13,199 bases of DNA from a virus (lineage: Duplodnaviria; Heunggongvirae; Uroviricota; Caudoviricetes): positions 1-13,199 of the IMG/VR virus record IMGVR_UViG_651053023_000013. One strand, 5' to 3'. Shown in pieces: positions 1 through 13,199 of this stretch. How positions within the stretch are numbered: position 1 is the first letter of the stretch; each line of letters starts with the position of its first letter. The translations under genes and the position numbers were made by a program. Below the pieces are notes generated by a model. The model saw only the letters and a program-made list of their open reading frames with translations, did no database searches and had not been told where the DNA came from.

Positions 1-160
1 AGTTTGCTCCTGCCATAACGTGAAGAAGCAATGACCTGGTGGTCCGTGACTTCCCTACGCTGGCATTATCCAGATCAGGTGATACGGGTATTTCTTACTG
101 ATTTTTGTTATCAGTTGATAATTAATAAGTTTTTCAGCAAACAAGAATTAAAAACTTCAA

Positions 161-184
161 AACTGACCACACAACTGACCACAC
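161..184. repeat. Perfect tandem direct repeat AACTGACCACAC x2 in an A/C-rich non-coding stretch
   Basis: Read directly: aactgaccacac at 161-172 and again at 173-184; no coding context. Confidence 0.6.
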
Positions 185-408
185 ATTTTGTTGAAGCTCT
201 ACGAACAAAGACGAACAATAACAAACAAAAGGGAAATTTGCTGGCAGTTTTGCTTAACCGTTATCATTTTTCGGCTATCCGTTATCAAGCTGGTGGATGA
301 TCACGGATAACCCGTTATGGGAATCCCCATATCGGCATCATGCCCACCAGCATGAAGTATTTTTCGCGGATGTAAAAATTTGACGGGGCGGGCGGTCCCA
401 TAAGCAAT

Positions 409-440
409 GGGGGGGTAGGGATTCCGCTCCCCCCCCTCCC
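409..440. other. G7 ... C8 homopolymer pair able to form a GC-rich stem-loop; T5 run follows about 10 nt downstream
   Basis: ggggggg (409-415) - tagggattccgct - cccccccc (429-436) - tccc, then gaatgcaattttt. Possible plus-strand intrinsic terminator or slippage-prone tract. Confidence 0.35.
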
Positions 441-474
441 GAATGCAATTTTTCTTATATATATACAAAACAGT

Positions 475-627
475 GCGGGTTATGCGGGTTAGCGGGTTAT
501 CTTCGCGTGCTAAGTATTTTTTATTCTTTAATATCAATGCGTTAAAAAATGATATGTTTGAATATTAGCCAAAACGTAACCCGCAAGACATTCAAAATAA
601 CCCGCAAATACCCCCCAAATAACCCAC
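475..627. repeat. Origin-like iteron module A: three abutting GCGGGTTAT copies, AT-rich spacer, three inverted ATAACCC(G/A)C copies at 21-22 bp phasing
   Basis: Direct copies at 475-483, 484-491, 492-500; AT-rich 501-574; inverted copies at 577-584, 597-605, 619-627. Same 9-mer and mirror-image layout as module B at 9640-9771. Confidence 0.6.
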
Positions 628-915
628 AACCCCATCAGGAAAATGGGGCCAGTGATGCCACCGAACGGCTGAATCTGGTAACGTTCTGTTGCCTGGTTGC
701 AGTTTGCGGGTCAGCAATACTGACGCACAAAGTTAGCCGTATGTGGCTGTGCGTCCACCAGCTACGCCGGAATGGGGTATTCCGTTTCAACGGAACAGGT
801 ATGACGAATATGATCGCACCTTCTCCCGAAAACGGGTTTGCCTGTTTCGGGAAAACGGGCACATGAAGCTGCATAGACATTTTCACTATTCAGGATCTGG
901 CGGGGGAGTTTCTCA

Positions 916-1085
916 ATTTCCACCGTTGGTGGAAATTAAACGAATACAGCGAGTTAGGACAAGGTGACTAATGGTCACTCTGTTGCTGCGTCACCATATT
1001 GATGATCCAGCCCTGTAGTCGCGCCACTTTTCCACCAATGGTGGAAAAGCCCACAGCAGGCCGCCCAGCCTCCCCCAATGGGGGA
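916..1085. repeat. Cluster of perfect palindromes sharing CCACC/GGTGG-type half-sites (candidate protein-binding sites)
   Basis: ATTTCCACC-gtt-GGTGGAAAT (916-936); GTGAC-aatg-GTCAC (965-978); CTTTTCCACCA-a-TGGTGGAAAAG (1027-1049); TCCCCCA-a-TGGGGGA (1071-1085). All read directly. Confidence 0.6.
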
Positions 1086-1190
1086 TTGTGGAAGAATCAA
1101 CGGGTTAGGCCTTAATCATCTGCGTAATCATAAGTAATCATAATGTTCATTCATCCAGCGCAATTTTGCGTTATCGGGAATATCAGCAAG

Positions 1191-1475
1191 TTACCGCCGC
1201 AACCGCTCCGGCTTCTTCCAGTGGTAAGTTATTTTTTCCTTCTCCCGGTACATCTCCACGCGGCGACGATATGACAACAACTCCAGAACTCTGATCCGTA
1301 TGTCGCGCATATCCACGCCGTTAAGCTCAATACCGTCACGGCGCATCACCTCAGCCACCACACGCGCGTAATTTTCGGCTATCACGCTGTCCGGCTGCGT
1401 GGCCTCCTGTTTGCCTGCTTCCTGGCTGATTCCGGTAATGCGGCGGATTATTTTTAGTAGTTCGGTTTCGCTCAC
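1191..1475 (-). CDS. Hypothetical small basic protein (94 aa) immediately downstream of the large terminase
   Basis: ORF starts with GTG 5 nt after the terL stop, with only a weak GGGG upstream; basic C-terminus; no recognisable motif. Confidence 0.35.
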   Translation of the reverse strand: MSETELLKIIRRITGISQEAGKQEATQPDSVIAENYARVVAEVMRRDGIELNGVDMRDIRIRVLELLSYRRRVEMYREKEKITYHWKKPERLRR

Positions 1476-1480
1476 TCTCG

Positions 1481-3142
1481 TTATACCCCATCAAACGCCG
1501 CAAGCCGCTCTTTGTGGCTGTCGCTCATATCGAATGCAAATTCCTCATGTTCTGCCTGGAATGTGCCAAACGCCATCAGCGCCGCAACGCTCGGGTCTAT
1601 CTTGTTGGATGATTTTTTCTTGTTCGGCTTGATATTGGCGTTCGCGTCACTCTGCATCACAACATTACTCATTGACCAGGCCAGCACCGGATCGCCACGA
1701 TGCACAATCACCTTCCGGTTAACAAAAACTTCGAACGATTTCGCCGCCGGACTGAAACGAAGGTATGTTTGCGGGAACGGCTCCACCTCAAATCCTGCCC
1801 CCTGTAGCTGCGTCCTCAGGTGCGTGGCGTTCCATGTATCGAAGCCCACCAGCCTGATATTGAAATTCTCTGCATCCGCCATGATGTCATCACGGATACG
1901 GTCATAATCAATGCAGTCACCCGGTGTTGTGCGTATCCAGCCCGCCTTTACCCACTGGCGATAGATGGCGCGGTTTTTATTGGCGGGGTTCTGTAGCTGA
2001 AACTCCGGCAGATAGTGACGGGAAACCAGCATAATCTTTTTACCGACCGGAAAGGCATAGCACACGCTGGAAATATCGCTGGTTGATGATAAGTCCAGCC
2101 CCGCGTAGCACTCCTGCCCGTATAAATCCGCCTCCGCGAACGTTCCGGCGCACTCCGCCCATGCACCGTTACCCATCCACGGCGTGGCCCCCTGACACCA
2201 GATATTGAATCGCTTGGTGAGCATTTCCACCCACTGCGACGGAATACCCCGCGCTTTCTGGATGGTTGAGGCCAGTTTTTCACGATCGACGGAAACATCG
2301 ATATTGGGATTCGCCTTTATCCACATCGCCGGATCGTCAACCTCGCTTTCATCATCCAGCTCGTAAATCAGCACGAACATGGATTCGTTCACCTCTTCAC
2401 CATCCAGTATCTGGCAGCAATAGTCGTAGTGTTGTTTACAGGCTGAAACAACGTTGCTCCCCGATGTGGTGATGGCAAATAATAACCCCTCCGGACGCGC
2501 CCCCATTCCCAGTTCAAGCGCGGAATAAACCCCGTTGTCAGGGTGCAGGTGATATTCATCCACAATGGCAAGACTCGGGTTTGTACCTTCAATGGTTGCC
2601 GCTTTTGCTGCCAGTGGCTTTAACAGGCTGTTGGTTTTCGGGTGTATCACCTTGTGTGCCTGAATATTTACCCGCTTTCGCAACGGTCGGGATAAAAGGC
2701 ACATCTGACGCGCATCATCAAACACGATCCGCGCCTGATCACGACTCACGGCGGCGGTGTAAATATCCTGCTGCCCGTTTTCCATAACCAGAAACCAGTT
2801 AGCCAGGATAGCGGCGACCGTGGATTTGGCATTTTTTCGCGGCACTTCAATGAATGCGCTGGTGTATTTGCGCCGTCCGGTGGCCTTAACCTTAAAGCCC
2901 AGGATGCACGCAAAGGCGAACTGCTGCCACGGCTCCAGCTCAATGGGGCTACCGCGCATTGCGCCTTTTACGTGCGGACACACCCTGGAAAAGGCAATAA
3001 ACCGCTCCACGACCTCCGGATCGAACGTGTAAAGGGGGTTTTCAAGGTCAGAAAAATACCGTTTAACGGCCTGTTTCAGTCGTTTACAGGCCGTAATTTT
3101 GCCGTTTTTTACGCCTTCTGCGTACTCATGCCAGGCGGTCAA
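1481..3142 (-). CDS. terL: Terminase large subunit (HK97-type, Terminase_1-like ATPase/nuclease)
   Basis: 553-aa ORF with a P-loop-like VPRKNAKST and conserved acidic blocks (LAIVDEYH, VLIYELDDESEVDD). Apparent TTG start at 3140-3142, preceded by GAGGA at 5-nt spacing and overlapping the terS stop by 17 nt. Confidence 0.9.
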   Translation of the reverse strand: MTAWHEYAEGVKNGKITACKRLKQAVKRYFSDLENPLYTFDPEVVERFIAFSRVCPHVKGAMRGSPIELEPWQQFAFACILGFKVKATGRRKYTSAFIEVPRKNAKSTVAAILANWFLVMENGQQDIYTAAVSRDQARIVFDDARQMCLLSRPLRKRVNIQAHKVIHPKTNSLLKPLAAKAATIEGTNPSLAIVDEYHLHPDNGVYSALELGMGARPEGLLFAITTSGSNVVSACKQHYDYCCQILDGEEVNESMFVLIYELDDESEVDDPAMWIKANPNIDVSVDREKLASTIQKARGIPSQWVEMLTKRFNIWCQGATPWMGNGAWAECAGTFAEADLYGQECYAGLDLSSTSDISSVCYAFPVGKKIMLVSRHYLPEFQLQNPANKNRAIYRQWVKAGWIRTTPGDCIDYDRIRDDIMADAENFNIRLVGFDTWNATHLRTQLQGAGFEVEPFPQTYLRFSPAAKSFEVFVNRKVIVHRGDPVLAWSMSNVVMQSDANANIKPNKKKSSNKIDPSVAALMAFGTFQAEHEEFAFDMSDSHKERLAAFDGV

Positions 3143-3481
3143 GCTCGTCCTCTTCCTCTGTTTCCGGTGGATTTCTGCGGCGACTTACCGGGTCAAAACC
3201 CAGCAAAGAAGCCATTTTGATCATTATTCTTTCCGCGTCAGCCTTTGCGCTCAGGGCGGGGTTTCTGCTCTCGCTGCCCTGACTGTTAACAATGCTGAAC
3301 CCGCGCGTGGCAAGGTCTTCGACGGCTTTGCGGTATATGGAGTAGTTAACGCAATAAGCTCCAGATTGCTCCAGTCGGCGGGGGTAAGGTCTTCCCGTCC
3401 GGAAAGCTGGCGCGATTTTTCCTTCCACTGCCTGACCGCGATTTCATCCAGGTAAGCGGGGGCTTTTGGTGGTCTTGCCAT
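3126..3481 (-). CDS. terS: Terminase small subunit, P27-like family, split across two reading frames (apparent -1 frameshift near 3345-3365)
   Basis: N-terminal part (ATG at 3479-3481, MARPPKAPAYLDEIAVRQWKE...LTPADWSNLEL) is in one frame and stops at 3251. The family-typical C-terminal part (AYCVNYSIYRKAVEDLATRG...MASLLGFDPVSRRRNPPETEEEDELDRLA) is in the adjacent frame and ends at 3126 overlapping terL. No slippery heptamer at the junction. Confidence 0.6.
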
Positions 3482-3599
3482 GTTCTTTTTTCGCCCAATT
3501 ATTTTCAAAAAAAATCCCGTGCACAAAAATTTGAGGAGGCGGTCGGTGTCCGGCAGGGACGGTTTGTCCTGAAAACCTCCCCCACCCCCTCTGACAGCC

Positions 3600-3785
3600 T
3601 CACCAGCGATTGCGAAAACATTCCATGACCTCGCGGTCACGGTCGGTTAATTGCTTCGCTGTGGTGCGTTCTGTGCGCCCTGTCCTGTTGGCTTTGTGCC
3701 CTGTCTCCTGTGTCTTCCATAAGTCACGCTGCCTTATCAGTCCACGTATCAGCCTGTTTTGCTCCTGTTCAGTCATCATCGCCAT
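3600..3785 (-). CDS. Hypothetical small basic protein (61 aa) between HNH and terS
   Basis: ATG at 3783-3785, 9 nt after the HNH stop; weak ribosome-binding site; no recognisable motif. Confidence 0.3.
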   Translation of the reverse strand: MAMMTEQEQNRLIRGLIRQRDLWKTQETGHKANRTGRTERTTAKQLTDRDREVMECFRNRW

Positions 3786-3796
3786 ACATCCAGTCG

Positions 3797-4210
3797 TTAC
3801 GGTGTGCCGCCCGTTCTTCCTGCTCGCGATACATGACCCGCCTTACGGTTCGCTTTCGTGGCTGGATCTTCCCGTGTCGTCTTACGGTTGTGGCACGTCT
3901 GGCACAATGCCTGGTGATTCCACTCAGGCCAGAAGAGAACATCACCGCCGCCATTGATGGGAATGATGTGATCCACCACAAGAGCTGGCGTATAAATCCC
4001 CTTAGCCAGACAACGCACGCATAACGGGTTTTTGCTCAGGTACAGGGCGCGGTATTTGTCCCACTGTCGGGAATACCCGCGCGCGCGGCGGTGTCCCCGT
4101 CTGGCATCCTCTGCACGCCATGCAGCCCGCCTGTGCTCTTCACACTTTCCGGACTTCACGCGCTTATTACAGCCCGGCTCAGTGCAGCGCCTTAATGGTT
4201 GCCACGGCAT
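3797..4210 (-). CDS. HNH endonuclease (packaging-associated)
   Basis: N-terminal Cys cluster CTEPGCNKRVKSGKCEEH, then HNH core VVDHIIPINGGGD ... WNHQALCQTCHNRKT. ATG at 4208-4210 overlaps the adaptor stop (ATGA). Confidence 0.9.
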   Translation of the reverse strand: MPWQPLRRCTEPGCNKRVKSGKCEEHRRAAWRAEDARRGHRRARGYSRQWDKYRALYLSKNPLCVRCLAKGIYTPALVVDHIIPINGGGDVLFWPEWNHQALCQTCHNRKTTREDPATKANRKAGHVSRAGRTGGTP

Positions 4211-4509
4211 CAGTACACCCCCACATCACGATAAACCGACCAGAGCGCAGAAATAGCCATAGGCAGTTCAGACTGCTCCACAGGTGAAACCGCTTCCCTG
4301 TTCTCGTACAGGAAAGCGATGTACATCAGGCAACCAACACGTATTGCCGGGGTAAATTCCAGCCCGTCTTCAAAACGTTTCCCGATATGCTTCTGGCAGG
4401 CTTCCAGCGCCGCATCGGTATACATTTTCAGAAGTTCGCCTTCTCCGGAAAAGTCATCAAGGCGAAGATGTGCCCTGACTTCATCAGGTGTAATTTTGTC
4501 TTCACTCAT
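4210..4509 (-). CDS. Head-tail adaptor/connector protein (HK97 gp6-like)
   Basis: MSEDKITPDEVRAHLRLDD...AIRVGCLMYIAFLYENRE matches the gp6-like pattern. ATG at 4507-4509 has an AGGTG Shine-Dalgarno and overlaps the portal stop by 8 nt. The tracked ORF start at 4596 is a GTG lying 95 nt inside the portal gene and is rejected. Confidence 0.7.
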   Translation of the reverse strand: MSEDKITPDEVRAHLRLDDFSGEGELLKMYTDAALEACQKHIGKRFEDGLEFTPAIRVGCLMYIAFLYENREAVSPVEQSELPMAISALWSVYRDVGVY

Positions 4510-5716
4510 CTTTTTCACCTTTAATTTCCACAGTCTGCTTCCATGCCTGGCTGAACTCGTCGCCACCTTCACGCGGCGGCATTCCCTCACGCTCACGGGC
4601 TTCGTTCGGATTCATGATCCCGTTCTTAATCCCTTTCTCATACGTGGCGTAACGTTCAGTAGGTGTGGCGCGCAGTAAATCGGCTGAATCAAACTCAACC
4701 AGATAACGGGTACCAGGTACGGGAGAAGCCACCAGCAAAGCGGCCTTGATTTGCTGTTCGAAGTTCGCCAGCCACGGACGCATTGTCATAGTCAGAAACG
4801 CGCGGCTTGCCTCACTGAAATTGCTGTAGGTGCTGTTGCTGTATTCCTGCAGAAAAATCGGCGACACGTTGAACATCCGGGCGATGTCTTCAATGGAGAA
4901 GCGACGGGAGGCCAGCCATTCCGCATCCTGGTTACTCATCCCCAGTTGCTTGTAATCCATGCCCCCTTCAAGGATTGGCGTTTTTCCGGCATTTTTCGCC
5001 CCCTTGTAGCGTTCCAGTGCGTCTAATGCCTGTTTACCTTTCACGCCGTCCAGCCATTCGCCTGACGTGATAATCCCTGCCGCCATCATGCCATCTTTCA
5101 TAATGCTGGCTCCGTGACGCTGTTGAGCAAGGCCAAGCCCCAGCGCCTCACGGCAAATCGTGATGGGGGAGCGTCCCAGAAAGCCATCATCCGAGGCATA
5201 GCGGAGATGCAGAACTTCTTCCTGTAAATACGTGCGCACCGTTCCTGTACAGGGTTCGGTGATGGTATAGCGGTATTTGTGTGCGCCTGTGCGTTCCGGT
5301 ACAACACACCCCGGCGCATAAGGATGAAGTGATTTTGGCTGACCGTCCCGCCCCCATTCAATAACCGCATAGGCGTTACCGTTCAGCAGGCAGTGACGCA
5401 TCATTGTGCGTTTAAACTGGTAAGGTGTCTGGCACGAATTAGGCTGCTCATTCAGCAGAATATCTACCGGATGACTGTCCAGCCATTCCCGCGCCTCCCT
5501 GCCCTTGTCATTACGTACCAGATACAGATAACACGGCATCGTGGCCACCGCCTCAGCGATGACGGAAACCGCGTTCATCACTGCGGGCAATGATTCAGCC
5601 GTCCCGGCAGAAACATATTCTCCGGATCCGGTATTCGGTACGCCGGACAGCACCAGAAAATCATCAATGGACAGGTTACGTTGCTCGCTTTTTTTACGAC
5701 TAAAAGGCCACCACAT
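4502..5716 (-). CDS. Portal protein (HK97 family)
   Basis: About 405 aa from ATG at 5714-5716 (MWWPFSRKK...), which follows the protease stop by one base (TGA-T-ATG). The longer tracked ORF begins at a TTG inside the protease gene. Confidence 0.85.
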   Translation of the reverse strand: MWWPFSRKKSEQRNLSIDDFLVLSGVPNTGSGEYVSAGTAESLPAVMNAVSVIAEAVATMPCYLYLVRNDKGREAREWLDSHPVDILLNEQPNSCQTPYQFKRTMMRHCLLNGNAYAVIEWGRDGQPKSLHPYAPGCVVPERTGAHKYRYTITEPCTGTVRTYLQEEVLHLRYASDDGFLGRSPITICREALGLGLAQQRHGASIMKDGMMAAGIITSGEWLDGVKGKQALDALERYKGAKNAGKTPILEGGMDYKQLGMSNQDAEWLASRRFSIEDIARMFNVSPIFLQEYSNSTYSNFSEASRAFLTMTMRPWLANFEQQIKAALLVASPVPGTRYLVEFDSADLLRATPTERYATYEKGIKNGIMNPNEAREREGMPPREGGDEFSQAWKQTVEIKGEKDE

Positions 5717-5717
5717 A

Positions 5718-6278
5718 TCACAACCCCGCCAGCTCTGCCCAGCGATGACGATTATTTCCTGCCGGGCGTAATTCAGGGTGCTGTGCAAACAACGAACGGT
5801 GGGCAATCTCCACGCCAGATTCGGGATAAGCAGGCATCGACGTGATCGTGATTTCCCTGAGTTCTGCAGCGGTAACAGTACGCAGATACGGTTTTTGCGC
5901 GATATTCCACTCTTCGCATAATGCGCGAAAGCCAAAGCTCATCCCTGTAATGTCGCCACGCTCCACCAGCGTAAGCACATCTTTTCCAAGCTGGGTATCA
6001 GGCGGTGTCAGTTCAAAACGTAGCCCGGTGTTGTCCTCAGTCAGTACCAGAGTGCCGGATTTGGTGCGCCCCAGCAGTTGGGTATAGTCATGCTCATACA
6101 GGCAGCGCACATCATTACCCGCCGCCAGATAGTCAGCAAAAGCCCCCGGCGTGAACTGTTCGCGGAATTCGTCCCAGATAATTTCTGAAAGGCTGTTCCA
6201 GCGAACGGCATACCCCACCAGCTTTTTATTGCTGGCGGTCAGTTCAGATGTGCGGATTTCAAAATCGGTGTTTTTCAT
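5718..6278 (-). CDS. Prohead maturation protease (HK97 family, S78/U35-like)
   Basis: 186 aa, placed between capsid and portal; typical HK97 protease length and sequence character. ATG at 6276-6278. Confidence 0.85.
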   Translation of the reverse strand: MKNTDFEIRTSELTASNKKLVGYAVRWNSLSEIIWDEFREQFTPGAFADYLAAGNDVRCLYEHDYTQLLGRTKSGTLVLTEDNTGLRFELTPPDTQLGKDVLTLVERGDITGMSFGFRALCEEWNIAQKPYLRTVTAAELREITITSMPAYPESGVEIAHRSLFAQHPELRPAGNNRHRWAELAGL

Positions 6279-6332
6279 CGGTGTACTCCATAAAGCTGAA
6301 AAAGGAGGCCGCAGCCTCCTCCTTACTCATGA

Positions 6333-7502
6333 CTAGCCAGCTTTCATTTCCAGAATTTTGATGGCGTTTGAATCCACCACACCACCGCCCAGATATTTAT
6401 CCGTGTGGACCTTGTAGAATCCGGGTTCAGTAATGTTGTCCGGTCGGGTGCGAATCCCTGTTACATGATCAACGATGAAATAACCACGACTGAAATCGCC
6501 AACCGCTAGCGGTGCTTTTCCTGCGCCGATGTCCGGCATGGACTCCAGGCAGAAAACAGGACGACCAAGCAACATATCCGGCGCACCTTCTTTAAGGCTG
6601 TCGCGCCAGATATAATCGCCATTCTCATTTTTCAGCTTCTGTAGTGTCCCTGCCGTGCCCGAGTTCATCACCCAGACGGCATTTTTGCGGTATTTCGCTT
6701 TCAGCTTGTAGAGAATGTCGATCAGTTCGTCCGCTGTAATGGCGGTTCCACTTGCCGCTACCACTTTTTCAATGGTGCCAAAAGCGCGGGTTTTGTCACT
6801 GGTCGCCGCACGGGTGTAAGCCATGAAGCCTTTCGGCTTGCCGTTACCGTCGCCATTAACAAAATCATCCTCTTCGGTGCTGGCGAACGTGTCGGCAATT
6901 TCGGAGGATAACCAGCCCAAAATATCCACCTCTGAAAAATCCAGGATTTCCTGCGTGGTTTTCGGGTAGGCGTAGATCTGATTCAGCTTGATGGTTACAC
7001 GTTCAATTTTCGGGGTGTTGGTTTCACTACGTGCGCTGCCTTCTGTGCCTCGTCCTACAGTTGCGCCGCCAGTGGAAACCAGTTTCTGAAACTCATTTGA
7101 TTTTGCGGTCTTCACGGTCGCGATCACGCGCATAACACTGTCATCCTGTAGCTGGCGCATGACTTCGCGATCAAGCTCAGGAATTACGGTATATCCGCCA
7201 TCCCTGCCGCTGTCAGTGCTGGTGGACAGTGATCGCACATCTCCGGTTACGATGTAGTTACGCAATTCATCAGATGATAATTTCTGGATGCCCGTTCCTG
7301 GCTTGCTGCGTTCTTCATCAGCCACAGACTCGAGGCGGTAAATTTCTGTGTCGAGGGAATCGGCTTTTGCACGCAGTTCATCAAACTGTTTGCCCTCGTC
7401 ATCGTTCAGGCTGCGGTTTTCACTGTCGGCTTTTTCCAGCAGGGATCGCATCTGGTTTTTCAGGGCGGTTTTTTGCTGGCGGAGTTCGATTAATTTCTTC
7501 AT
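6333..7502 (-). CDS. Major capsid protein (HK97 fold) with N-terminal coiled-coil delta/scaffold domain
   Basis: 389 aa; N-terminal heptad-rich region (MKKLIELRQQKTALKNQMRSLLEKADSENRSL...) followed by an HK97-type capsid body. ATG at 7500-7502. Confidence 0.9.
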   Translation of the reverse strand: MKKLIELRQQKTALKNQMRSLLEKADSENRSLNDDEGKQFDELRAKADSLDTEIYRLESVADEERSKPGTGIQKLSSDELRNYIVTGDVRSLSTSTDSGRDGGYTVIPELDREVMRQLQDDSVMRVIATVKTAKSNEFQKLVSTGGATVGRGTEGSARSETNTPKIERVTIKLNQIYAYPKTTQEILDFSEVDILGWLSSEIADTFASTEEDDFVNGDGNGKPKGFMAYTRAATSDKTRAFGTIEKVVAASGTAITADELIDILYKLKAKYRKNAVWVMNSGTAGTLQKLKNENGDYIWRDSLKEGAPDMLLGRPVFCLESMPDIGAGKAPLAVGDFSRGYFIVDHVTGIRTRPDNITEPGFYKVHTDKYLGGGVVDSNAIKILEMKAG

Positions 7503-7572
7503 GAAGGTTTTCTCGTATTGGTTAAGATTCAGGACGTGAAACCAACACGGAGGGAGCGCCGCCCGACACTCT

Positions 7573-7621
7573 CGGCATCTCGCAGATCAACCCGGCATCG
7601 CGCAGGGGGTCAGGCGGCATT
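7573..7621. promoter_or_regulatory. Three direct CGGCAT(C) repeats at 20-22 bp phasing upstream of the capsid operon (candidate activator sites for a late promoter)
   Basis: cggcatctcgcag (7573-7585), cggcatcgcgcag (7593-7605), cggcatt (7615-7621), in a GC-rich block 70-120 bp upstream of the capsid ATG. No good sigma70 -35/-10 lies between the block and the ATG. Confidence 0.35.
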
Positions 7622-7726
7622 GTGGCGGCTCACGTCTGAGTGCCACACGCCAACATATACATAAAAATCAGTATGTAAACATCAGCCAGAATCACCGAAC
7701 AACCTGGAACAACCACGAACAAATAA

Positions 7727-7757
7727 TTTACAAAACCTGAAAAAAATGGCCTATTAT
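7727..7757 (+). promoter_or_regulatory. Putative sigma70 promoter of the AT-rich accessory gene
   Basis: TTTACA (7727-7732), 19-bp spacer, TATTAT (7752-7757); AGGA ribosome-binding site 6 nt before the ATG at 7789. Spacer is longer than optimal. Confidence 0.3.
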
Positions 7758-7788
7758 TGCTACCTCTGACTACAACAAAGGACGCATC

Positions 7789-8295
7789 ATGAATTTAAGC
7801 GCAATGGTATACCCTGATACTTTCATAATTAATGGCGAATCATTTAAAGGTAAAAGAAACGCAAAAGAAAACAAGGTATTAATTCCATATACAAATGAAC
7901 CGGAAGTAACTATTGGTCAACACATTATCCAGTGTGTCGGTAAAAACGAGATAAATCTAAAAATTATAGATATGAAGTTGCTTCCCAATGGAACCCTCAG
8001 ACAGGGAACCAACCATCCAAATATGTTGACGCTCTATATTGAAAATATCACGGGAAATGAACATATGACGCCACCTAAAAGTAATACATTTAACATTGGT
8101 TCAATTAGTGGTAATCAAGTGCAGATAGGTGAGCATAACCATATGCTGGTAAACATCAGCATCACTGAACTGGTTGAAAAAGTCTCTAAATCGGGGGATG
8201 TACAAGCCAAATCAGTATTAAAGCAGTTACTGGAAAACAGTACCGTTGCCAGCATTGTTGGGGCTGGCGCAAGTGCCTTAATAGGCTTACTGTAA
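7789..8295 (+). CDS. Unrecognised 168-aa protein with C-terminal hydrophobic glycine-zipper segment; AT-rich accessory gene (moron)
   Basis: Only credible plus-strand gene inside the island. Roughly one-third GC by eye against about half in neighbouring genes. Own promoter, ribosome-binding site and terminator. C-terminal ...NSTVASIVGAGASALIGLL is a likely membrane anchor. Internal NIGSISGNQVQIGEHNH is not assignable from memory. Confidence 0.7.
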   Translation: MNLSAMVYPDTFIINGESFKGKRNAKENKVLIPYTNEPEVTIGQHIIQCVGKNEINLKIIDMKLLPNGTLRQGTNHPNMLTLYIENITGNEHMTPPKSNTFNIGSISGNQVQIGEHNHMLVNISITELVEKVSKSGDVQAKSVLKQLLENSTVASIVGAGASALIGLL

Positions 8296-8303
8296 AAAAA
8301 TGA

Positions 8304-8320
8304 CCTGGAGAAAATCCAGG
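8304..8320. terminator. Bidirectional intrinsic terminator between convergent genes
   Basis: Stem CCTGGA (8304-8309), loop gaaaa, stem TCCAGG (8315-8320). On the minus strand it is followed by T7 (complement of A7 at 8294-8300); on the plus strand by an interrupted T-rich run. Confidence 0.5.
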
Positions 8321-8331
8321 CCTTTATCGCT

Positions 8332-8580
8332 TTATTGTTTCACTGGATCCCGCATTCTGCGTCTTATTTTCCACAGATATTCGATCATCGCTTCCACCTG
8401 CTCACGATTGGTTGCGAAAATTTCCCCGGTCAGTGAGCTGCGCAGAAAATCATGATGATCCACAACAAACAACGCATCGGAAGAAAGCAGACGGCGATAT
8501 TTTTTTGCTGTCGTGGTTTCCAGATCATCAAAACCATGAAACTTTTTATGTTGCTGGACTTCTTCAAATGTCACTGGCAT
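8332..8580 (-). CDS. Hypothetical protein (82 aa), translationally coupled to the ProQ/FinO-like gene
   Basis: ATG at 8578-8580 overlaps the stop of the upstream ORF by 10 nt; no recognisable motif. Confidence 0.45.
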   Translation of the reverse strand: MPVTFEEVQQHKKFHGFDDLETTTAKKYRRLLSSDALFVVDHHDFLRSSLTGEIFATNREQVEAMIEYLWKIRRRMRDPVKQ

Positions 8581-9113
8581 GTATCCCCCTTTGCTGCCCG
8601 GCGCTGGCGCTTGTGCTTCTCATTCAGCGCCATCAGCCGCGTTTCTGCCTCCTGCTGTTCCTGTGGTGTCACTTCCCCACATGGCTGGCCTTTCAGGTCG
8701 TATCGTACCCCACCAGCAACCAGGGCGCGGTAATAGCGCGGAGACTGCGCATAAGATGCCAGCGTCGCACGTAATGCCCCCGGCCCGAATGCCAGCCCCC
8801 TGACGGCGAGATCCTGCATCAGGTCGTCGAATATCCCCACCTTAAGCGGCTTCGGTGCTTCCCTGTTGAATAAGTCAGGCCACATCTCAGTGAGGCGGTT
8901 AACGCGCCTGCGGTTTTTGCGCTGGCGTTTGGTCATATGCCGCCACGGTGTCACCCCTGTGGGCTGCCCTTTGCGGCTCTGCTGTGCGTTCTGATTGCCG
9001 GGTATCACTTTATGCGCCGATGTGGTTTTATCCCGCTCTTGCGCCGCCTGCGTCGTTTTCTGCGGCGTGCCGTAAATGCCTTTCGGTTTTCGGTTAATGG
9101 TCAGCTTTGTCAT
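8571..9113 (-). CDS. ProQ/FinO-domain RNA-binding protein with an N-terminal basic, Q-rich extension of about 75 aa
   Basis: PLKVGIFDDLMQDL...LRATLASYAQSPRYYRALVAGGVRYDLKGQPCGEVTPQEQQEAETRL aligns by eye to the N-terminal FinO domain of E. coli ProQ (PLKIGIFQDL...LRSALRLYTSSWRYLYGV...[24 protein letters not shown]). ATG at 9111-9113 with a GGGGAAGG ribosome-binding site. Confidence 0.75.
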   Translation of the reverse strand: MTKLTINRKPKGIYGTPQKTTQAAQERDKTTSAHKVIPGNQNAQQSRKGQPTGVTPWRHMTKRQRKNRRRVNRLTEMWPDLFNREAPKPLKVGIFDDLMQDLAVRGLAFGPGALRATLASYAQSPRYYRALVAGGVRYDLKGQPCGEVTPQEQQEAETRLMALNEKHKRQRRAAKGDTCQ

Positions 9114-9149
9114 GCCTTCCCCTGTAATTACTCTGTTCGCTGTTGTGAA

Positions 9150-9575
9150 TTAAAACGGTATGTTATCCCCGTACAGGTCATCGTGCTGGCCTGTCTGTTG
9201 TTTTGCCCTGTTCAGTGCGTCAGTGGCCTGCCCCTGTTGGCCTTTTTTGCCGCCCGGTCGCGCCGTTCTCGCACTGATTACGCTGTCTGCGATGACCTGC
9301 CAGCCCTGCCGCGTTTCGCCGTTCTGCCCTGTCCACTGGCTTACCTGCATGTTACCCGCCACGTTCACCAGTTCGCCTTTGCGGTGTTTTGCCAGTGCGT
9401 CGGCCTGTCTGCCAAACGCCAGGACGGATAACCACATCGTCGCCGTTCCGTCATCTGCCTGGCTGCATGGCAGGGGAACCGCCATACTCGCCATCGCCAT
9501 TTGTGTTCCCTTGCTGGTGGTCTTTAACTGCGGGTCAGCCACCAGCCGCCCGTAAGCCGCTATCTGTGCTGTCAT
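9150..9575 (-). CDS. ssb: Single-stranded DNA-binding protein (short, divergent SSB)
   Basis: 141 aa; OB-fold-like N-terminal pattern (GRLVADPQL ... WLSVLAFGRQADALAKHRKGELVNVAGNMQVSQWTGQNGETRQGWQVIADSV), Gly/Gln-rich linker and acidic tail ending DDLYGDNIPF (compare DDDIPF in E. coli SSB). Confidence 0.75.
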   Translation of the reverse strand: MTAQIAAYGRLVADPQLKTTSKGTQMAMASMAVPLPCSQADDGTATMWLSVLAFGRQADALAKHRKGELVNVAGNMQVSQWTGQNGETRQGWQVIADSVISARTARPGGKKGQQGQATDALNRAKQQTGQHDDLYGDNIPF

Positions 9576-9639
9576 GCTGTCTGCTCTCCGGTTTTAACGT
9601 TGATGGTTACGCTTGTTTACACCCTTACGGTGAAATTCT

Positions 9640-9771
9640 GCGGGTTATAATCGCACTTTTGCGGGTTATAACTGCCGTTTTGCGGGTTACGTGCGGGTTA
9701 TTGATTTCCTTTTTATTCATACAGTTAATGCACTTATATACATGATAACCCGCATAACCCGCATAACCCGC
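9640..9771. repeat. Origin-like iteron module B: four GCGGGTTA(T/C) copies at 21/21/11 bp phasing, AT-rich spacer, three abutting ATAACCCGC copies; immediately downstream of the primase-helicase gene
   Basis: Direct copies at 9640-9648, 9661-9669, 9682-9690, 9693-9701; AT-rich 9702-9744; inverted copies at 9745-9753, 9754-9762, 9763-9771. The primase stop is at 9795-9797. Confidence 0.7.
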
Positions 9772-9794
9772 AACTTTTCACCTCACACAGGGGG

Positions 9795-11918
9795 TTAATC
9801 TTCTGCCTCAGGCTGGAACATCAGCACGTAAAAAACATGCTGCTTCCCCCCAATTTTGCCGAGCGCCTTTTTCTTGTAACGGCGATCGTTACCCGCTTCC
9901 AGCATTCCGGCAGCACTCAACGCGCGGGCAAAGTGAGACGGATTAAATCCCTGTGCTATCTCACCCTCAAATACATGCGGGAACGTGTAAAAACGGAACT
10001 CGTCATCTTCGTTTCTGATACTCCCCTTTCTGTATCCGGCAAGCTCTTTAATCGGTAAATCACGCTCGTCGGTGTTGGGCCACGGAAGGTATCTGCTGAA
10101 TCCGAACGACGCTAAAAAAGCCTCTGCCTGTTCAACCATCTGTTTAAACTCCCTGTTACCCGTGCCGAACTCCTTCACCCAGGCATTAAAATTATGCTGA
10201 ATGGCATCGCGGCACGCCTGAACATCCCAACCAGTAATATGGACGGAAAGCACCAGCGCCGACTCCAGCATGGCGAATCGTTCCCCCACACGGTGAACCT
10301 GTTCGCCGTAACTCTCCGGTATCAGGTTGCGCCACCGTTCACGGCATGCCCTTACCGTATCCTTTGCCTCCTGCTGGTGGTCTGCCAGCCATTTAACCCA
10401 TTCACGCCCCGCCGCCCCGTGATTTTCTGTCCAGGCATCCTTTAACGCGTCTGCGTGTGCCTTTCCGGTGCTGTATTCGTGAAACTGCGTGGCTTTTTCC
10501 ATTGGCACGTTAAGCAGGCGGACAAGCTGCCCCGCCTTGACTTTTATCCCCTCCGTTTTGAGGAATGTCTCAACGTCCATTTCTCCGGTGCTGATTGCCA
10601 CCGTGCGCCAGTGTTTGATCTCCCTGTTGCCGCCGTCCTTCGCCCCCTGTAATTTCCCCGAACCGTTAAACAGCGTATAAGCCGACGTGGACACTTCCCG
10701 CGCGTTTCCGGCCTGACCTATTTCATCCAGGGGTAATAGCCCGTCATTGTGCGCCTCTGCCTCGTTGGCGATGCCTAACGCTGTACCGTACCAGGTCAGC
10801 CGTTGCGCGTCCGGCTCTCCCCATAAACTGGATGCGATGTTCTGTGTGGTGGTTTTCCCTGCCGATGACTGTTCGAAAAGATGTACCCCGAAGCCGTCAG
10901 CACCCACCAGCCCGATTAATGGTGCGGATAACGATACCGCCACACCCAGCATCATGGACGGATTACCACCAGCCAGCCGCGCAACGATATCGCGCCAGCC
11001 CTCCGCCGTTCCTGCCACGGAATAGCCATTAACAGCAGCCGTTTTTCCGGTAAACAGGACTGGCTTTTCGCAATCACCAATGACCGAACCGTCCGGCATG
11101 ATGTACGCGCCAAAATGCCAGCCCGTTGTTGTGCTTAACTGCCATTCCTCATGGCTTCCGCTTAACTGCATCCAGTCAGCCAGGATAGCCCTGTATTTAC
11201 CGTTGGTTGTTACGTTCAGTCCGTGGTCTTTCAGCAACCGCCAGCCGTCACGGTCGCCAATGCCACCGCACGGAACCGCCATTGTGATGACTTCATGGTT
11301 TGCTAATTTTTTCCAGCGCATCACGCGGTAATGCTCTTTACCGATTGTCCCCGTTCCCAGTAGTTCAAGCGGGGAACATAACCACGTCTCAGGCCGGATA
11401 ATTTCGCCTGACTGCTTATCCACTTTTGGCGTTACCCAGAAAACACCATCGGCGCGACTTTCAACGCGGGGCTTTAATTCATCATCGCCCTGGATTTCTG
11501 TGATTTTTTTCTTTAAGGGCAACACCAGACTTTCCCCGCGCTCGTATTCGTCTTTGAGGCGAGGCAACTGGTCGGATAAATCCGCCGGGCTGATGTCAGT
11601 TATCCCCGCGTATTCGTATACGGTCTTCACGCCAGCCACAGCCAGCAACGTGACGATCTGTGTAAGGCTACGTTCAGTGATGTGCCCTGCGCGGTAAACA
11701 CGCACACACTGACGGCTATCATCAATAATTTGATAACCGGTAATATCTTTCAGGTGTTCATCTGACAGAACGACAGGCGGCACATTGTCGGCGGCAATAT
11801 GCTTACCTGCCCATTCCTGCCACTCTTTCGCATGGCTCCACGCATCACTACCCGCAAAGATGATAACCTCCGTCATTTTGTCGGCTGGCTGGTGCTTTAA
11901 GTTTGGTGCGCGCTTCAT
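9795..11918 (-). CDS. Replication initiator: Toprim-like primase N-terminus plus DUF927/SF3-type helicase-like domain
   Basis: 707 aa; P-loop FEQSSAGKTTTQNIASSLWG and Walker B-like LLPLDEIGQAG; N-terminal region resembles a Toprim primase fold. ATG at 11916-11918 overlaps the upstream stop (ATGA). The iteron module follows directly. Confidence 0.8.
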   Translation of the reverse strand: MKRAPNLKHQPADKMTEVIIFAGSDAWSHAKEWQEWAGKHIAADNVPPVVLSDEHLKDITGYQIIDDSRQCVRVYRAGHITERSLTQIVTLLAVAGVKTVYEYAGITDISPADLSDQLPRLKDEYERGESLVLPLKKKITEIQGDDELKPRVESRADGVFWVTPKVDKQSGEIIRPETWLCSPLELLGTGTIGKEHYRVMRWKKLANHEVITMAVPCGGIGDRDGWRLLKDHGLNVTTNGKYRAILADWMQLSGSHEEWQLSTTTGWHFGAYIMPDGSVIGDCEKPVLFTGKTAAVNGYSVAGTAEGWRDIVARLAGGNPSMMLGVAVSLSAPLIGLVGADGFGVHLFEQSSAGKTTTQNIASSLWGEPDAQRLTWYGTALGIANEAEAHNDGLLPLDEIGQAGNAREVSTSAYTLFNGSGKLQGAKDGGNREIKHWRTVAISTGEMDVETFLKTEGIKVKAGQLVRLLNVPMEKATQFHEYSTGKAHADALKDAWTENHGAAGREWVKWLADHQQEAKDTVRACRERWRNLIPESYGEQVHRVGERFAMLESALVLSVHITGWDVQACRDAIQHNFNAWVKEFGTGNREFKQMVEQAEAFLASFGFSRYLPWPNTDERDLPIKELAGYRKGSIRNEDDEFRFYTFPHVFEGEIAQGFNPSHFARALSAAGMLEAGNDRRYKKKALGKIGGKQHVFYVLMFQPEAED

Positions 11919-12229
11919 TTTGCCTTTCCCCGTTCACGAATAATTTCACGTACTGCCTTAATGCGTTCCATTCCTGTAACGCGCATGATTCTGTCGATGT
12001 CGCTTAATTCTGCTGGTGGTGCTTTACTTACCAAGGTGAACTCCCTGTCAAAGCGCATATGTGACGACACGCAGGGATGCGCATAACCTTCGCGGATATA
12101 GGTCACACGAAAATCATCGACGGTTTTGATCGTTATCGTGCTGCCGTATTTATCCTGGAAAATATCGCCGGGGCGGATTTCAGGCCGAGCGGGGCCGCTG
12201 GCAGTAAAGCCAGAATTTTTCTTTTTCAT
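11915..12229 (-). CDS. Hypothetical protein (104 aa), translationally coupled to the primase-helicase
   Basis: ATG at 12227-12229 with GGAG at 8-nt spacing; stop overlaps the primase start; no recognisable motif. Confidence 0.5.
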   Translation of the reverse strand: MKKKNSGFTASGPARPEIRPGDIFQDKYGSTITIKTVDDFRVTYIREGYAHPCVSSHMRFDREFTLVSKAPPAELSDIDRIMRVTGMERIKAVREIIRERGKAK

Positions 12230-12234
12230 GTTTT

Positions 12235-12453
12235 TTACTCCAGAGGCAGCTTTTTAGCGGCGAGCTCAATATCAGATGTCAGAGAAACCTGTGTATTTGC
12301 CAGGTCTAACAACAAAGAAATAAGAATTTCTTCTCTGCTATCGGATTTATCGGTGCTAAGGCTGTTCATCCACATATTGACGACTTCCCTGATTTTTTTC
12401 GCAGAGTGCAGGGCTTCAAATGCCAGGTCTTCAATATCATGTTTATTTCGCAT
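12235..12453 (-). CDS. Hypothetical small protein (about 72 aa)
   Basis: Preferred ATG at 12451-12453 (MRNKHDIEDL...) with a GGGGG ribosome-binding site, overlapping the upstream stop by 11 nt. The tracked ORF start at 12483 is TTG. Confidence 0.4.
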   Translation of the reverse strand: MRNKHDIEDLAFEALHSAKKIREVVNMWMNSLSTDKSDSREEILISLLLDLANTQVSLTSDIELAAKKLPLE

Positions 12454-12805
12454 AATCGCCCCCGCCATTTTCACAATCAGCAATCAGGATGGCTTTTGCC
12501 TCATTCAGCGCCATATCAGCACTAAATTGCATAACAGCCAGTGAGTGAGGAACGAAAGCCCCGGCATATTCTGTTTCGCTGGTGGCCTCAATGGTAATCA
12601 CACGCGGTTGTGCCGTGCTCAGGGCGATAAAACGCCAGATGTATTTATTCAGGTTGTGCAAGTCCCGCCCTTGCGGGTGTGTGGTATGATTTAACATAGC
12701 TACCTCGATAATCTTGCTATCGTTGGTGGTTAGAAGCCCGGTTAGTGTTAGCGCACTGCCGGGTTTCGTCGTTTGTATTTCAATAAAACCATTGGTGTGT
12801 TTCAT
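12443..12805 (-). CDS. Hypothetical protein, first gene of the replication-side operon (120 aa from ATG 12805; alternative start 12697 gives 84 aa)
   Basis: ATG at 12803-12805 sits inside an operator-like inverted repeat and has no Shine-Dalgarno. An internal ATG at 12695-12697 has a GAGGT ribosome-binding site. The tracked extension to 13186 is Ser/Thr-rich and antisense to the plus-strand regulator. Confidence 0.45.
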   Translation of the reverse strand: MKHTNGFIEIQTTKPGSALTLTGLLTTNDSKIIEVAMLNHTTHPQGRDLHNLNKYIWRFIALSTAQPRVITIEATSETEYAGAFVPHSLAVMQFSADMALNEAKAILIADCENGGGDYAK

Positions 12806-12875
12806 GTTATTTTGGAGTGAAACACACGTCAAGCCTTTTTTGTATTTCTTTTTTGTGTATACTGAAACACACCAA
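12792..12875. promoter_or_regulatory. Divergent control region with three copies of TGAAACACAC (one inverted, two direct) and a -10-like TATACT
   Basis: GTGTGTTTCA (12795-12804, overlapping the minus-strand ATG), TGAAACACAC (12818-12827) and TGAAACACACCAA (12863-12875). The first and third share 13 bp in opposite orientation. TATACT at 12858-12863. Confidence 0.5.
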
Positions 12876-12893
12876 ATTTGAGGAGTTTCAGTT

Positions 12894-13199
12894 ATGGCGA
12901 CTACCAACAAAAACGCTAAATCACAATTGACCACCGTCAGAGTCCCCCACGATGTTATGGAGGGCATGGAATCCGTAAAACTGGACGGCGAAAGCAACGC
13001 CGGATTCATAGTAACCGCCATGCGCGGTGAGATCGCCCGCCGCCAGGCAGAAGGAAGCGGAGAAAATCCCCTGGTTTCTTCGCTCGATGCACTGGCGCAG
13101 GTGGAAAAAATTGGAGTCAAGGCTGCCGAGGAGATCGGGCAACTCGTCGCCGTCGCGCGTGAAGAACTCCAGCGCCGCAAGGCCAAAGAATCAGAATAA
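12894..13199 (+). CDS. Putative ribbon-helix-helix-type DNA-binding regulator (101 aa), divergent from the replication operon
   Basis: Strong ribosome-binding site GAGGAG (12880-12885), 8 nt before the ATG. N-terminus LTTVRVPHDVMEGMESVKL...NAGFIVTAMRGEIARRQ fits a beta-strand/helix/helix pattern; helical C-terminal extension. Fold assignment is by pattern only. Confidence 0.45.
   Translation: MATTNKNAKSQLTTVRVPHDVMEGMESVKLDGESNAGFIVTAMRGEIARRQAEGSGENPLVSSLDALAQVEKIGVKAAEEIGQLVAVAREELQRRKAKESE

Follow-up and report, generated by a model that had tools for sequence, protein, structure and literature searches.

Several long inverted repeats crowd into about 170 bp of non-coding DNA near one end of an Escherichia coli phage satellite, which raises the questions what these dyads are, where they stem from and whether they serve the element that carries them. 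The initial annotation of the locus had proposed sites for a dimeric DNA-binding protein, with cos/pac or TerS recognition and a repressor array as possible roles. We analyzed the complete DNA stretch of 13,199 nucleotides available for this element (IMG/VR record IMGVR_UViG_651053023_000013, positions 1 to 13,199), referred to as the window in the following, together with related islands, complete E. coli genomes and phage genes.

The satellite island and its genes

The window represents an E. coli capsid-forming PICI-like (cf-PICI) phage satellite. Its positions 1–95 are core chromosome, present in 5424 of 5426 E. coli genomes, and the island starts at about position 96. A chromosomal feature annotated as 'riboswitch' adjoins the junction at ~95. 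As the junction lies there and the dyads are found 820–990 bp inside the island, an interpretation of the dyads as att core of the integrase (tyrosine recombinase, 7-7-7 geometry) was rejected. Near the junction, there are tandem 12-nt repeats that look like integrase arm-type sites, i.e., two copies of AACTGACCACAC at 158–186 of the window and two copies of ATTAACTACACC in other islands (L001 7343–7366; L016 1546–1570). A tRNA scan of the window returned nothing.

The island genes are listed in Table 1; a Rha/Roi gene is absent from the island within the 13.2 kb seen. On the DNA level (window 1500–3200), the TerL gene is 78–79% identical to genes of Klebsiella phage P12620-1 (106.5 kb), the annotation of which is uninformative, and of Escherichia phage vB_KppS-Ant, a 16.5-kb 'induced prophage' and possibly a cf-PICI in its own right. 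The dyads had been placed in a non-coding region beyond the terminase end. Non-coding the region is, but a 94-aa gene (phrog_1561) separates it from TerL. In most relatives, this gene adjoins the dyad array, and it is always located beside the island/cos end, downstream of the packaging genes, across differing capsid/terminase modules. The 965 homologue clusters of its product are all annotated as hypothetical and stem almost exclusively from E. coli, Shigella or Salmonella. Matches in Pfam, NCBIfam or PDB sequences were not found for the protein, and its AF2 model, of low confidence (pLDDT 59), consists of three helices. The protein was also considered as the binder of the array or as an Rpp-like factor and was rejected: it has no domain match, and a Salmonella island (L151) contains the gene without the array, so that the link between gene and array is not obligatory.

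Table 1. Features of the window, with positions in nucleotides from its first letter
Feature	Position	Strand	Description
cos-like sequence	362–399		97% identity to the phage phiP27 region with the annotated cos-site
cosB-like block	474–629		GCGGGTTA three times, AT-rich segment, then four inverted repeats of the AACCCGCAA type
Fragment A	902–964	+	reads GGVSQFPPLVEIKRIQRVRTR; from tblastn with sampled Rha N-domains; carries dyad A
Dyad A	915–937		10-bp arms AATTTCCACC/GGTGGAAATT around GTT; direct reading and dyad scan
Weak dyad	964–978		GTGAC (964–968)-TAATG-GTCAC (974–978), CTAATGG core; direct reading, core scan
Fragment B	1026–1073	+	reads TFPPMVEKPTAGRPAS; carries dyad B
Dyad B	1027–1049		CTTTTCCACCA-A-TGGTGGAAAAG, perfect 11+1+11 palindrome; direct reading
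Fragment D	1060–1131	+	reads AAQPPPMGDCGRINGLGLNHLRNH, like Roi residues 44–58; carries dyad D
Dyad D	1071–1085		TCCCCCA-A-TGGGGGA, perfect 7+1+7 palindrome; direct reading
IHF consensus after dyad D	1095–1107	+	AATCAACGGGTTA (consensus WATCAANNNNTTR), 9 nt past the dyad
Unit E	1159–1193	+	dyad CGCAA-TT-TTGCG (1159–1170), IHF-like TATCAGCAAGTTA (1181–1193) with one mismatch
94-aa gene, phrog_1561	1191–1475	−	last gene of the leftward packaging operon
TerL	1481–3142	−	
P27-type TerS, HNH endonuclease, connector, portal, protease, major capsid protein		−	island genes
ProQ/FinO-family RNA-binding protein	8571–9113	−	adjoins SSB and DUF927 primase
SSB, DUF927 primase, DUF4222		−	island genes

Symmetry of the dyads

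The inverted repeats in the initial annotation had been given as perfect palindromes. This holds true for dyad B with its 23 bp and for dyad D, while in dyad A, described as a 21-bp palindrome at 916–936 (ATTTCCACC-GTT-GGTGGAAAT), the arms are perfect and the 3-nt centre is asymmetric, rendering the element an inverted repeat. A fourth pair, given as GTGAC-N4-GTCAC at 965–978, exists, but it starts one position earlier, has a spacer of five nucleotides and is weak, as its 5-bp arms are by themselves not significant; it may represent a decayed unit. Unit E, which reaches into the phrog_1561 gene at its 3' end, was recognized via comparison with other islands and has homologous counterparts in L149 and L150. 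Between units D and E, at 1124–1143, the window contains a perfect tandem repeat (two copies of GTAATCATAA), and the palindrome TAATCATAATGATTA occupies the homologous place in L148 and L150.

The dyads at 915–1085 are real, non-random and far beyond chance expectation. Six perfect dyads with arms of at least 7 nt and loops of at most 4 nt occur in the whole 13.2-kb window, four of them within 780–1085. In first-order Markov simulations, which follow the dinucleotide transition frequencies of the window and are not exact dinucleotide-preserving shuffles, two dyads with arms of at least 10 nt arose in none of 300 simulated windows, and three or more dyads with arms of at least 7 nt in none of 5000 simulated 170-bp regions. 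The earlier expectation that such dyads do not arise by chance is thus in agreement with the simulations, and sites for a dimeric DNA-binding protein are the most plausible reading of these non-random elements. No island-encoded repressor is linked to the dyads.

Origin from phage Rha/Roi/Ant genes

Judged from sequence comparison, the dyads are very probably pieces of Rha/Roi/Ant genes that are centred on a dyad residing inside the genes of this family. Fragments A, B and D all lie on the plus strand, in three differing frames; they are frame-broken, 50–70 nt long and mutually overlapping. All translated fragments cover the same codons of the Phage_pRha N-terminal domain (~residues 27–52), stem from different subfamilies and show flank homology to Phage_pRha genes around the codons for '(L/F)P(P/Q)x(V/E)E'. 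Fragment B matches residues 23–38 of an Ant/Rha-like protein from Salmonella phage SSU5 in 15 of 16 positions; on the DNA level, positions 1026–1057 are 100% identical to a part of the Ant gene of this 103-kb phage, a match that extends to 1069 at 91%. A DNA search of the phage collection revealed that positions 1065–1118 match roi and anti-repressor genes of lambdoid phages, with Roi consisting of Phage_pRha plus ANT by Pfam. E. coli matches to the fragment B stretch are annotated as 'Rha family transcriptional regulator' and those to the fragment D stretch as 'phage antirepressor KilAC domain-containing protein'. The exact 17-mer TTCCACCAATGGTGGAA, which encodes (L/F)PPMVE, or LPPLVE on the opposite strand, is present in 58 IMG/VR contigs, in ~30 of which it resides in full-length Rha-family ORFs of 250–400 aa reading 'RHDSVKRTIERLAE.GVIQLPPMVE'. 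The window cores CCACCA and CCCCCA are both found at the homologous site of sampled real genes.

A compensated dyad inside Rha/Roi/Ant genes

The parent genes were studied on a sample of 80 Rha/Roi-family loci, drawn with the peptide patterns LVDRW[QR]EL and [VI]VAQL[SC]PE, neither of which touches the dyad. In most sampled lineages, the DNA at codon 35 constitutes a perfect dyad, with arms of up to 14 nt (TTCAATTTCCTCAA-A-TTGAGGAAATTGAA). Across the 80 loci, perfect arms average 5.9 at codon 35 vs. 0.94 ± 0.6 at other positions of the domain, and resampling of synonymous codons with the protein kept yields a mean arm of 2.04 with a maximum of 2.44 (200 runs). At least six fully compensated cores are present, namely CCACCA/TGGTGG, CCACAG/CTGTGG, CCTCAA/TTGAGG, CCTGCA/TGCAGG, CCCCCA/TGGGGG and CCTCCA/TGGAGG. 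Both sides are changed at nine of 13 pairs (33 cells; 25 distinct sequences), and the covariation score amounts to 0.292 as compared to 0.103 ± 0.017 in shuffles, none of 500 of which reaches this value; slid partners score at most 0.136. Compensation requires in part amino-acid changes, i.e., P to Q paired with M to I, or V, E or G paired with the third position of a Pro codon, so that the constraint does not act on the protein alone.

An RNA hairpin of the sense strand was considered for this dyad and rejected. Just three one-sided cells are of the G-U type, vs. 33 two-sided ones, A:C mismatches of the sense strand exceed G:T mismatches (24 vs. 5) and one-sided changes are rare. Taken together with loops of 1–3 nt, these counts suggest recognition of the site as duplex DNA by a dimeric protein. 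The intragenic dyad is a selected DNA feature of Rha/Roi/Ant genes and most probably serves the dimeric helix-turn-helix protein encoded there as its autogenous operator. A search for a solved structure of the Rha/Roi family found none.

Link to IHF sites and the precedent of HK022 Roi

For one member of the family, an intragenic site of Roi has been known since 1996. Roi of phage HK022, as Clerget and Boccard are said to have described in that year, binds a site inside its own gene that is closely linked to an IHF site, and IHF reportedly stabilizes this binding. The HK022 roi gene contains a CTGCA-T-TGCAG dyad, followed after 11 nt by the IHF consensus AATCAATGATTTA, which makes CTGCATTGCAG a candidate for the Roi site; we infer the identity of dyad and Roi site. 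The layout is not restricted to this gene, as genes of the subfamily characterized by 'INxLG' carry a perfect IHF consensus WATCAANNNNTTR 9–11 nt after the dyad, with the IHF motif itself encoding these residues. The roi genes of both JLK-2012 and HK022 conform to this arrangement.

The WATCAANNNNTTR consensus has only three matches on both strands of the window. One of them, at 1095, follows dyad D, with the layout and a similar spacing as in real genes and other islands. About 10 nt downstream of the dyad, the IHF motif is exact in unit D, has one mismatch in unit E, is degenerate in unit A (943–958) and absent in unit B, the parent subfamily of which (SSU5 type, 'KPTAGRP') also lacks the consensus. 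The window thus resembles the HK022 case in containing fragments homologous to the roi/ant/rha stretch with a dyad followed by an IHF site, and differs from it in that this module lies outside any gene, in tandem copies with different cores, and in a satellite without a Rha/Roi gene.

Distribution among genomes and related islands

Of 5426 complete E. coli genomes, 883 contain the segment 850–1110, at a median copy number of one and a maximum of six, always in island or phage context. A ubiquitous host repeat family, the finding that the initial annotation had named as speaking against its proposal, can therefore be dismissed, and its statement that the dyads do not resemble REP elements proved correct. 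REP/BIME sequences are likewise clusters of palindromes, perfect or not, that follow the final gene of an operon, but every E. coli genome has hundreds of copies scattered over its chromosome. The window dyads are not dispersed over the chromosome, are unrelated in sequence and very probably derive from phage genes.

Related E. coli and Shigella islands at phoQ, yejO, caiA and clpS feature 3–10 perfect dyads or dyad-plus-IHF units, arranged in the stretch from the phrog_1561 gene to the island end, and the packaging modules of these islands differ. The cores vary (CCTCAA, CCACAG, CCACCA, CCCCCA, CGCAA and others), the units are homologous to the segment of the real genes and the spacing between dyad and IHF motif is kept. 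Island L149 contains ~10 perfect dyads, among them a 12+1+12 element (CGACCTCCTCAA-A-TTGAGGAGGTCG) and cores CCTCAA, CCACAG, CGCAA and TTCGCCG, with six IHF-type motifs (four exact consensus) after dyads in the layout dyad, 10 nt, IHF motif, 'ccgcgcc'; where consecutive, its units are 48–54 nt apart. Eight island termini, 4.3 kb altogether, hold 46 perfect dyads with arms of at least 6 nt, ten-fold more than the 4.4 expected. TRF called no repeat on the arrays, the units of which are too diverged, and other palindromes of the L150 array had no match in the phage collection.

With regard to conservation, islands L001 and L061 show two substitutions in the arms of dyad A, dyads B and D each have a single-arm change in a few relatives, and 10 of 11 island relatives possess an intact dyad B although their left flanks differ. 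Compensated changes were not seen among the island relatives compared. L004 has no array, nor has Salmonella island L151, which retains the phrog_1561 gene and the cos-like sequence; the array is thus dispensable. L004 is inserted in the terminase large-subunit gene of a prophage, the halves of which flank the island (L004 3038–3781 and 18824–19625), and in this respect resembles helper-embedded satellites (bioRxiv 10.1101/2022.07.18.500453).

The surroundings of the cos-like sequence exhibit some further features. In L001 (7469–7495) and L037 (294–325), the core of dyad B and its right flank (CCACCAATGGTGGAAAAGCCCAC) occur once more, ~50 bp away on the other side of the cos-like site, and the window contains unrelated sequence at that place (300–343). 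Directly to the right of the cos-like site, at 405–432, the window has an inverted pair of a G7 and a C8 tract (AATGGGGGGGTAGGGATTCCGCTCCCCCCCC), in a region that varies in L001 and L004 and is shorter there. Near their end, several island types (L016 1676–1691, L149 1066–1081, L005 3354–3369 and, from Salmonella, L151 3119–3134) share a conserved perfect 8+8 palindrome, TATGGGGATCCCCATA, which might be related to cos or att. An imperfect copy (TATGGGAATCCCCATA) is found at 316–333 of the window, and the half-site is a permuted form of dyad D.

Packaging, RNA and recombination as alternative explanations

That the dyads are cosB- or pac-type sites bound by the TerS of the island or by an HNH-terminase complex appears highly improbable to us, even though they share the intergenic end region with cos, at most ~700 bp away, and islands of the L001/L037 type possess an additional CCACCAATGGTGG copy ~50 bp from the cos-like site. 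The annotated 10-nt cos-site of phiP27 maps to ~385–394 in the window (GGGGCGGGCG), and the sequence at 362–399 is the likelier site of packaging cleavage in the island. Downstream of it, the cosB-like block shows the canonical succession of repeats, IHF site and inverted repeats, with a perfect IHF consensus (TATCAATGCGTTA) at 532–544 in its AT-rich segment, and is conserved in L001 and L004; alternatively, it could be an iteron-type origin. The cosB of phage lambda is organized as R3-I1-R2-R1, with TerS sites arranged around an IHF bend. It has in common with the window dyads that protein-binding repeats and an IHF site occur near a cos end, but the dyads are palindromes and not oriented R repeats, and they lie 520–690 bp from the cos-like site instead of beside it. 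The block at 474–629 is a far better counterpart. Nor are the dyads inherited together with the terminase: L004, the closest island overall with TerS and TerL 98% identical, retains positions 415–629 and lacks window positions 630–1478, a gap that takes in the 94-aa gene and every dyad. As L004 keeps terminase and cos, this terminase does not need the dyads, which renders a cos/pac role unlikely. Moreover, the same dyads are present in islands with TerS-only, ClpP/MCP fusion and lambda-type capsid packaging modules, and the dyads very probably stem from anti-repressor genes and not from packaging regions.

Two further explanations are a role at the RNA level and recombination scars. The dyads are located immediately downstream of the last operon gene, each of them gives, on both strands, a hairpin with a folding energy of −10 to −17 kcal/mol and many unrelated palindromes gather at the same place in relatives, all of which would suit a transcript of the leftward packaging operon whose 3' end carries REP- or terminator-like stem-loops, stabilizing the mRNA or insulating cos, att and int from read-through. 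We nevertheless regard this as improbable: no stem is followed by a U-tract, the sole terminator-like site in a scan of 600–1300 is located at 651–627 on the minus strand and none at the dyads, and an Rfam scan of the whole window at gathering score gave no matches. The parent genes exhibit the pattern of typical duplex-DNA sites as laid out above, and neither the gene-specific origin nor the IHF consensus linked to the dyads would be accounted for. Both the RNA hairpin or terminator role and the packaging role are less likely than binding sites or scars. The latter constitute the main rival, according to which the dyads are inert recombination scars without present function: a junk or accessory zone at the island end beside cos, prone to recombination, would repeatedly have exchanged DNA with prophage rha/roi/ant genes, with the dyad as microhomology or break-prone site. 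The broken frames and mutual overlap of the fragments are in line with this, as are the great differences in array content among islands, some of which have no array, and the uncompensated arm changes in relatives. Furthermore, dyad B combines a constant right flank with at least three different left flanks and thus behaves as a mosaic breakpoint. Random scars, on the other hand, should sample many genes and positions, whereas every identifiable fragment covers the same ~50 nt of one family, comprising the dyad with or without the IHF site, in several subfamilies. Such repeated capture of a single short segment makes random gene decay hard to invoke. In addition, ~7 of 12 distinct IHF-anchored units keep arms of at least 6 nt, vs. 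41% of the sampled real genes, and the ten-fold enrichment of dyads at eight island termini likewise speaks against scars. Inert scars are a possibility that deserves serious attention but that we rather doubt.

Proposed function of the captured dyads

Our best reading of the dyads, which we consider to have about an even chance of being right, is that they are captured sites at which dimeric Rha/Roi-type regulators encoded by co-resident phages would bind. Short frame-broken fragments of Rha/Roi/Ant genes, three or four in the window, lie in the accessory region between the last gene of the packaging operon and cos. The island copies would then be bound by IHF and by Rha/Roi-type proteins that co-resident or helper phages make, and the island end could act as a landing pad of multiple specificities, be it as a decoy or titration site, as a helper sensor or as a roadblock, the latter at the end of the late operon and ahead of cos, att and int.

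Whether the captured sites function in the island is evenly balanced in our judgment. The capture of only this segment, repeatedly and from several subfamilies, favours a retained function, and the same is indicated by the fact that the reading frame is lost while the symmetry of the dyads is as good as in real genes. Several observations argue against it. No phage-gene source was found for several array palindromes in other islands, fragments A and B have no good IHF consensus, arm changes in relatives are uncompensated and the array is dispensable. A promoter scan of 600–1300 detected no promoter-like site near the dyads, so that an obvious regulated target is missing. Arrays of operator or decoy sites that titrate regulators in plasmids and phages are similar in that several dimer sites of high symmetry cluster in non-coding DNA of a mobile element. 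In the window, however, each site has a different core, the cores apparently matching alleles of one regulator family that is encoded elsewhere, and titration is our proposal.

These considerations can be combined into two claims: that Rha/Roi/Ant regulators carry a co-evolving intragenic operator, a dyad of 13–29 bp that is compensated even at amino-acid cost in the encoded segment, and that enterobacterial PICIs and cf-PICIs captured arrays of such operators, often with IHF sites and in many specificities, to sense, titrate or roadblock regulators of their helpers. We put the two forward jointly as a tentative model that is rather unlikely to hold in full. In the literature searched, neither the family-wide compensated dyad nor its capture as arrays in PICIs is described. 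The portions of the cf-PICI literature covered by a limited text search hold nothing that ties Rha/anti-repressors or IHF to cf-PICIs, and palindromes, dyads or inverted repeats are not mentioned in a review of enteric PICI packaging.

Implications

For the annotation of such islands, it follows that packaging signals should be sought at 362–629 and not at the palindromes. Independently of the island, the family-wide compensated dyad provides a testable operator for a very common and poorly understood class of phage 'anti-repressors', and it is a clean example of how constraint on a DNA site shapes protein-coding sequence. If the captured dyads are functional, they would represent a new kind of satellite–helper interaction, in which the satellite does not employ a protein that binds a helper protein but holds a library of the binding sites of its helpers' own regulators, and this might be relevant to the fact that cf-PICIs are so widely distributed among species and genera.
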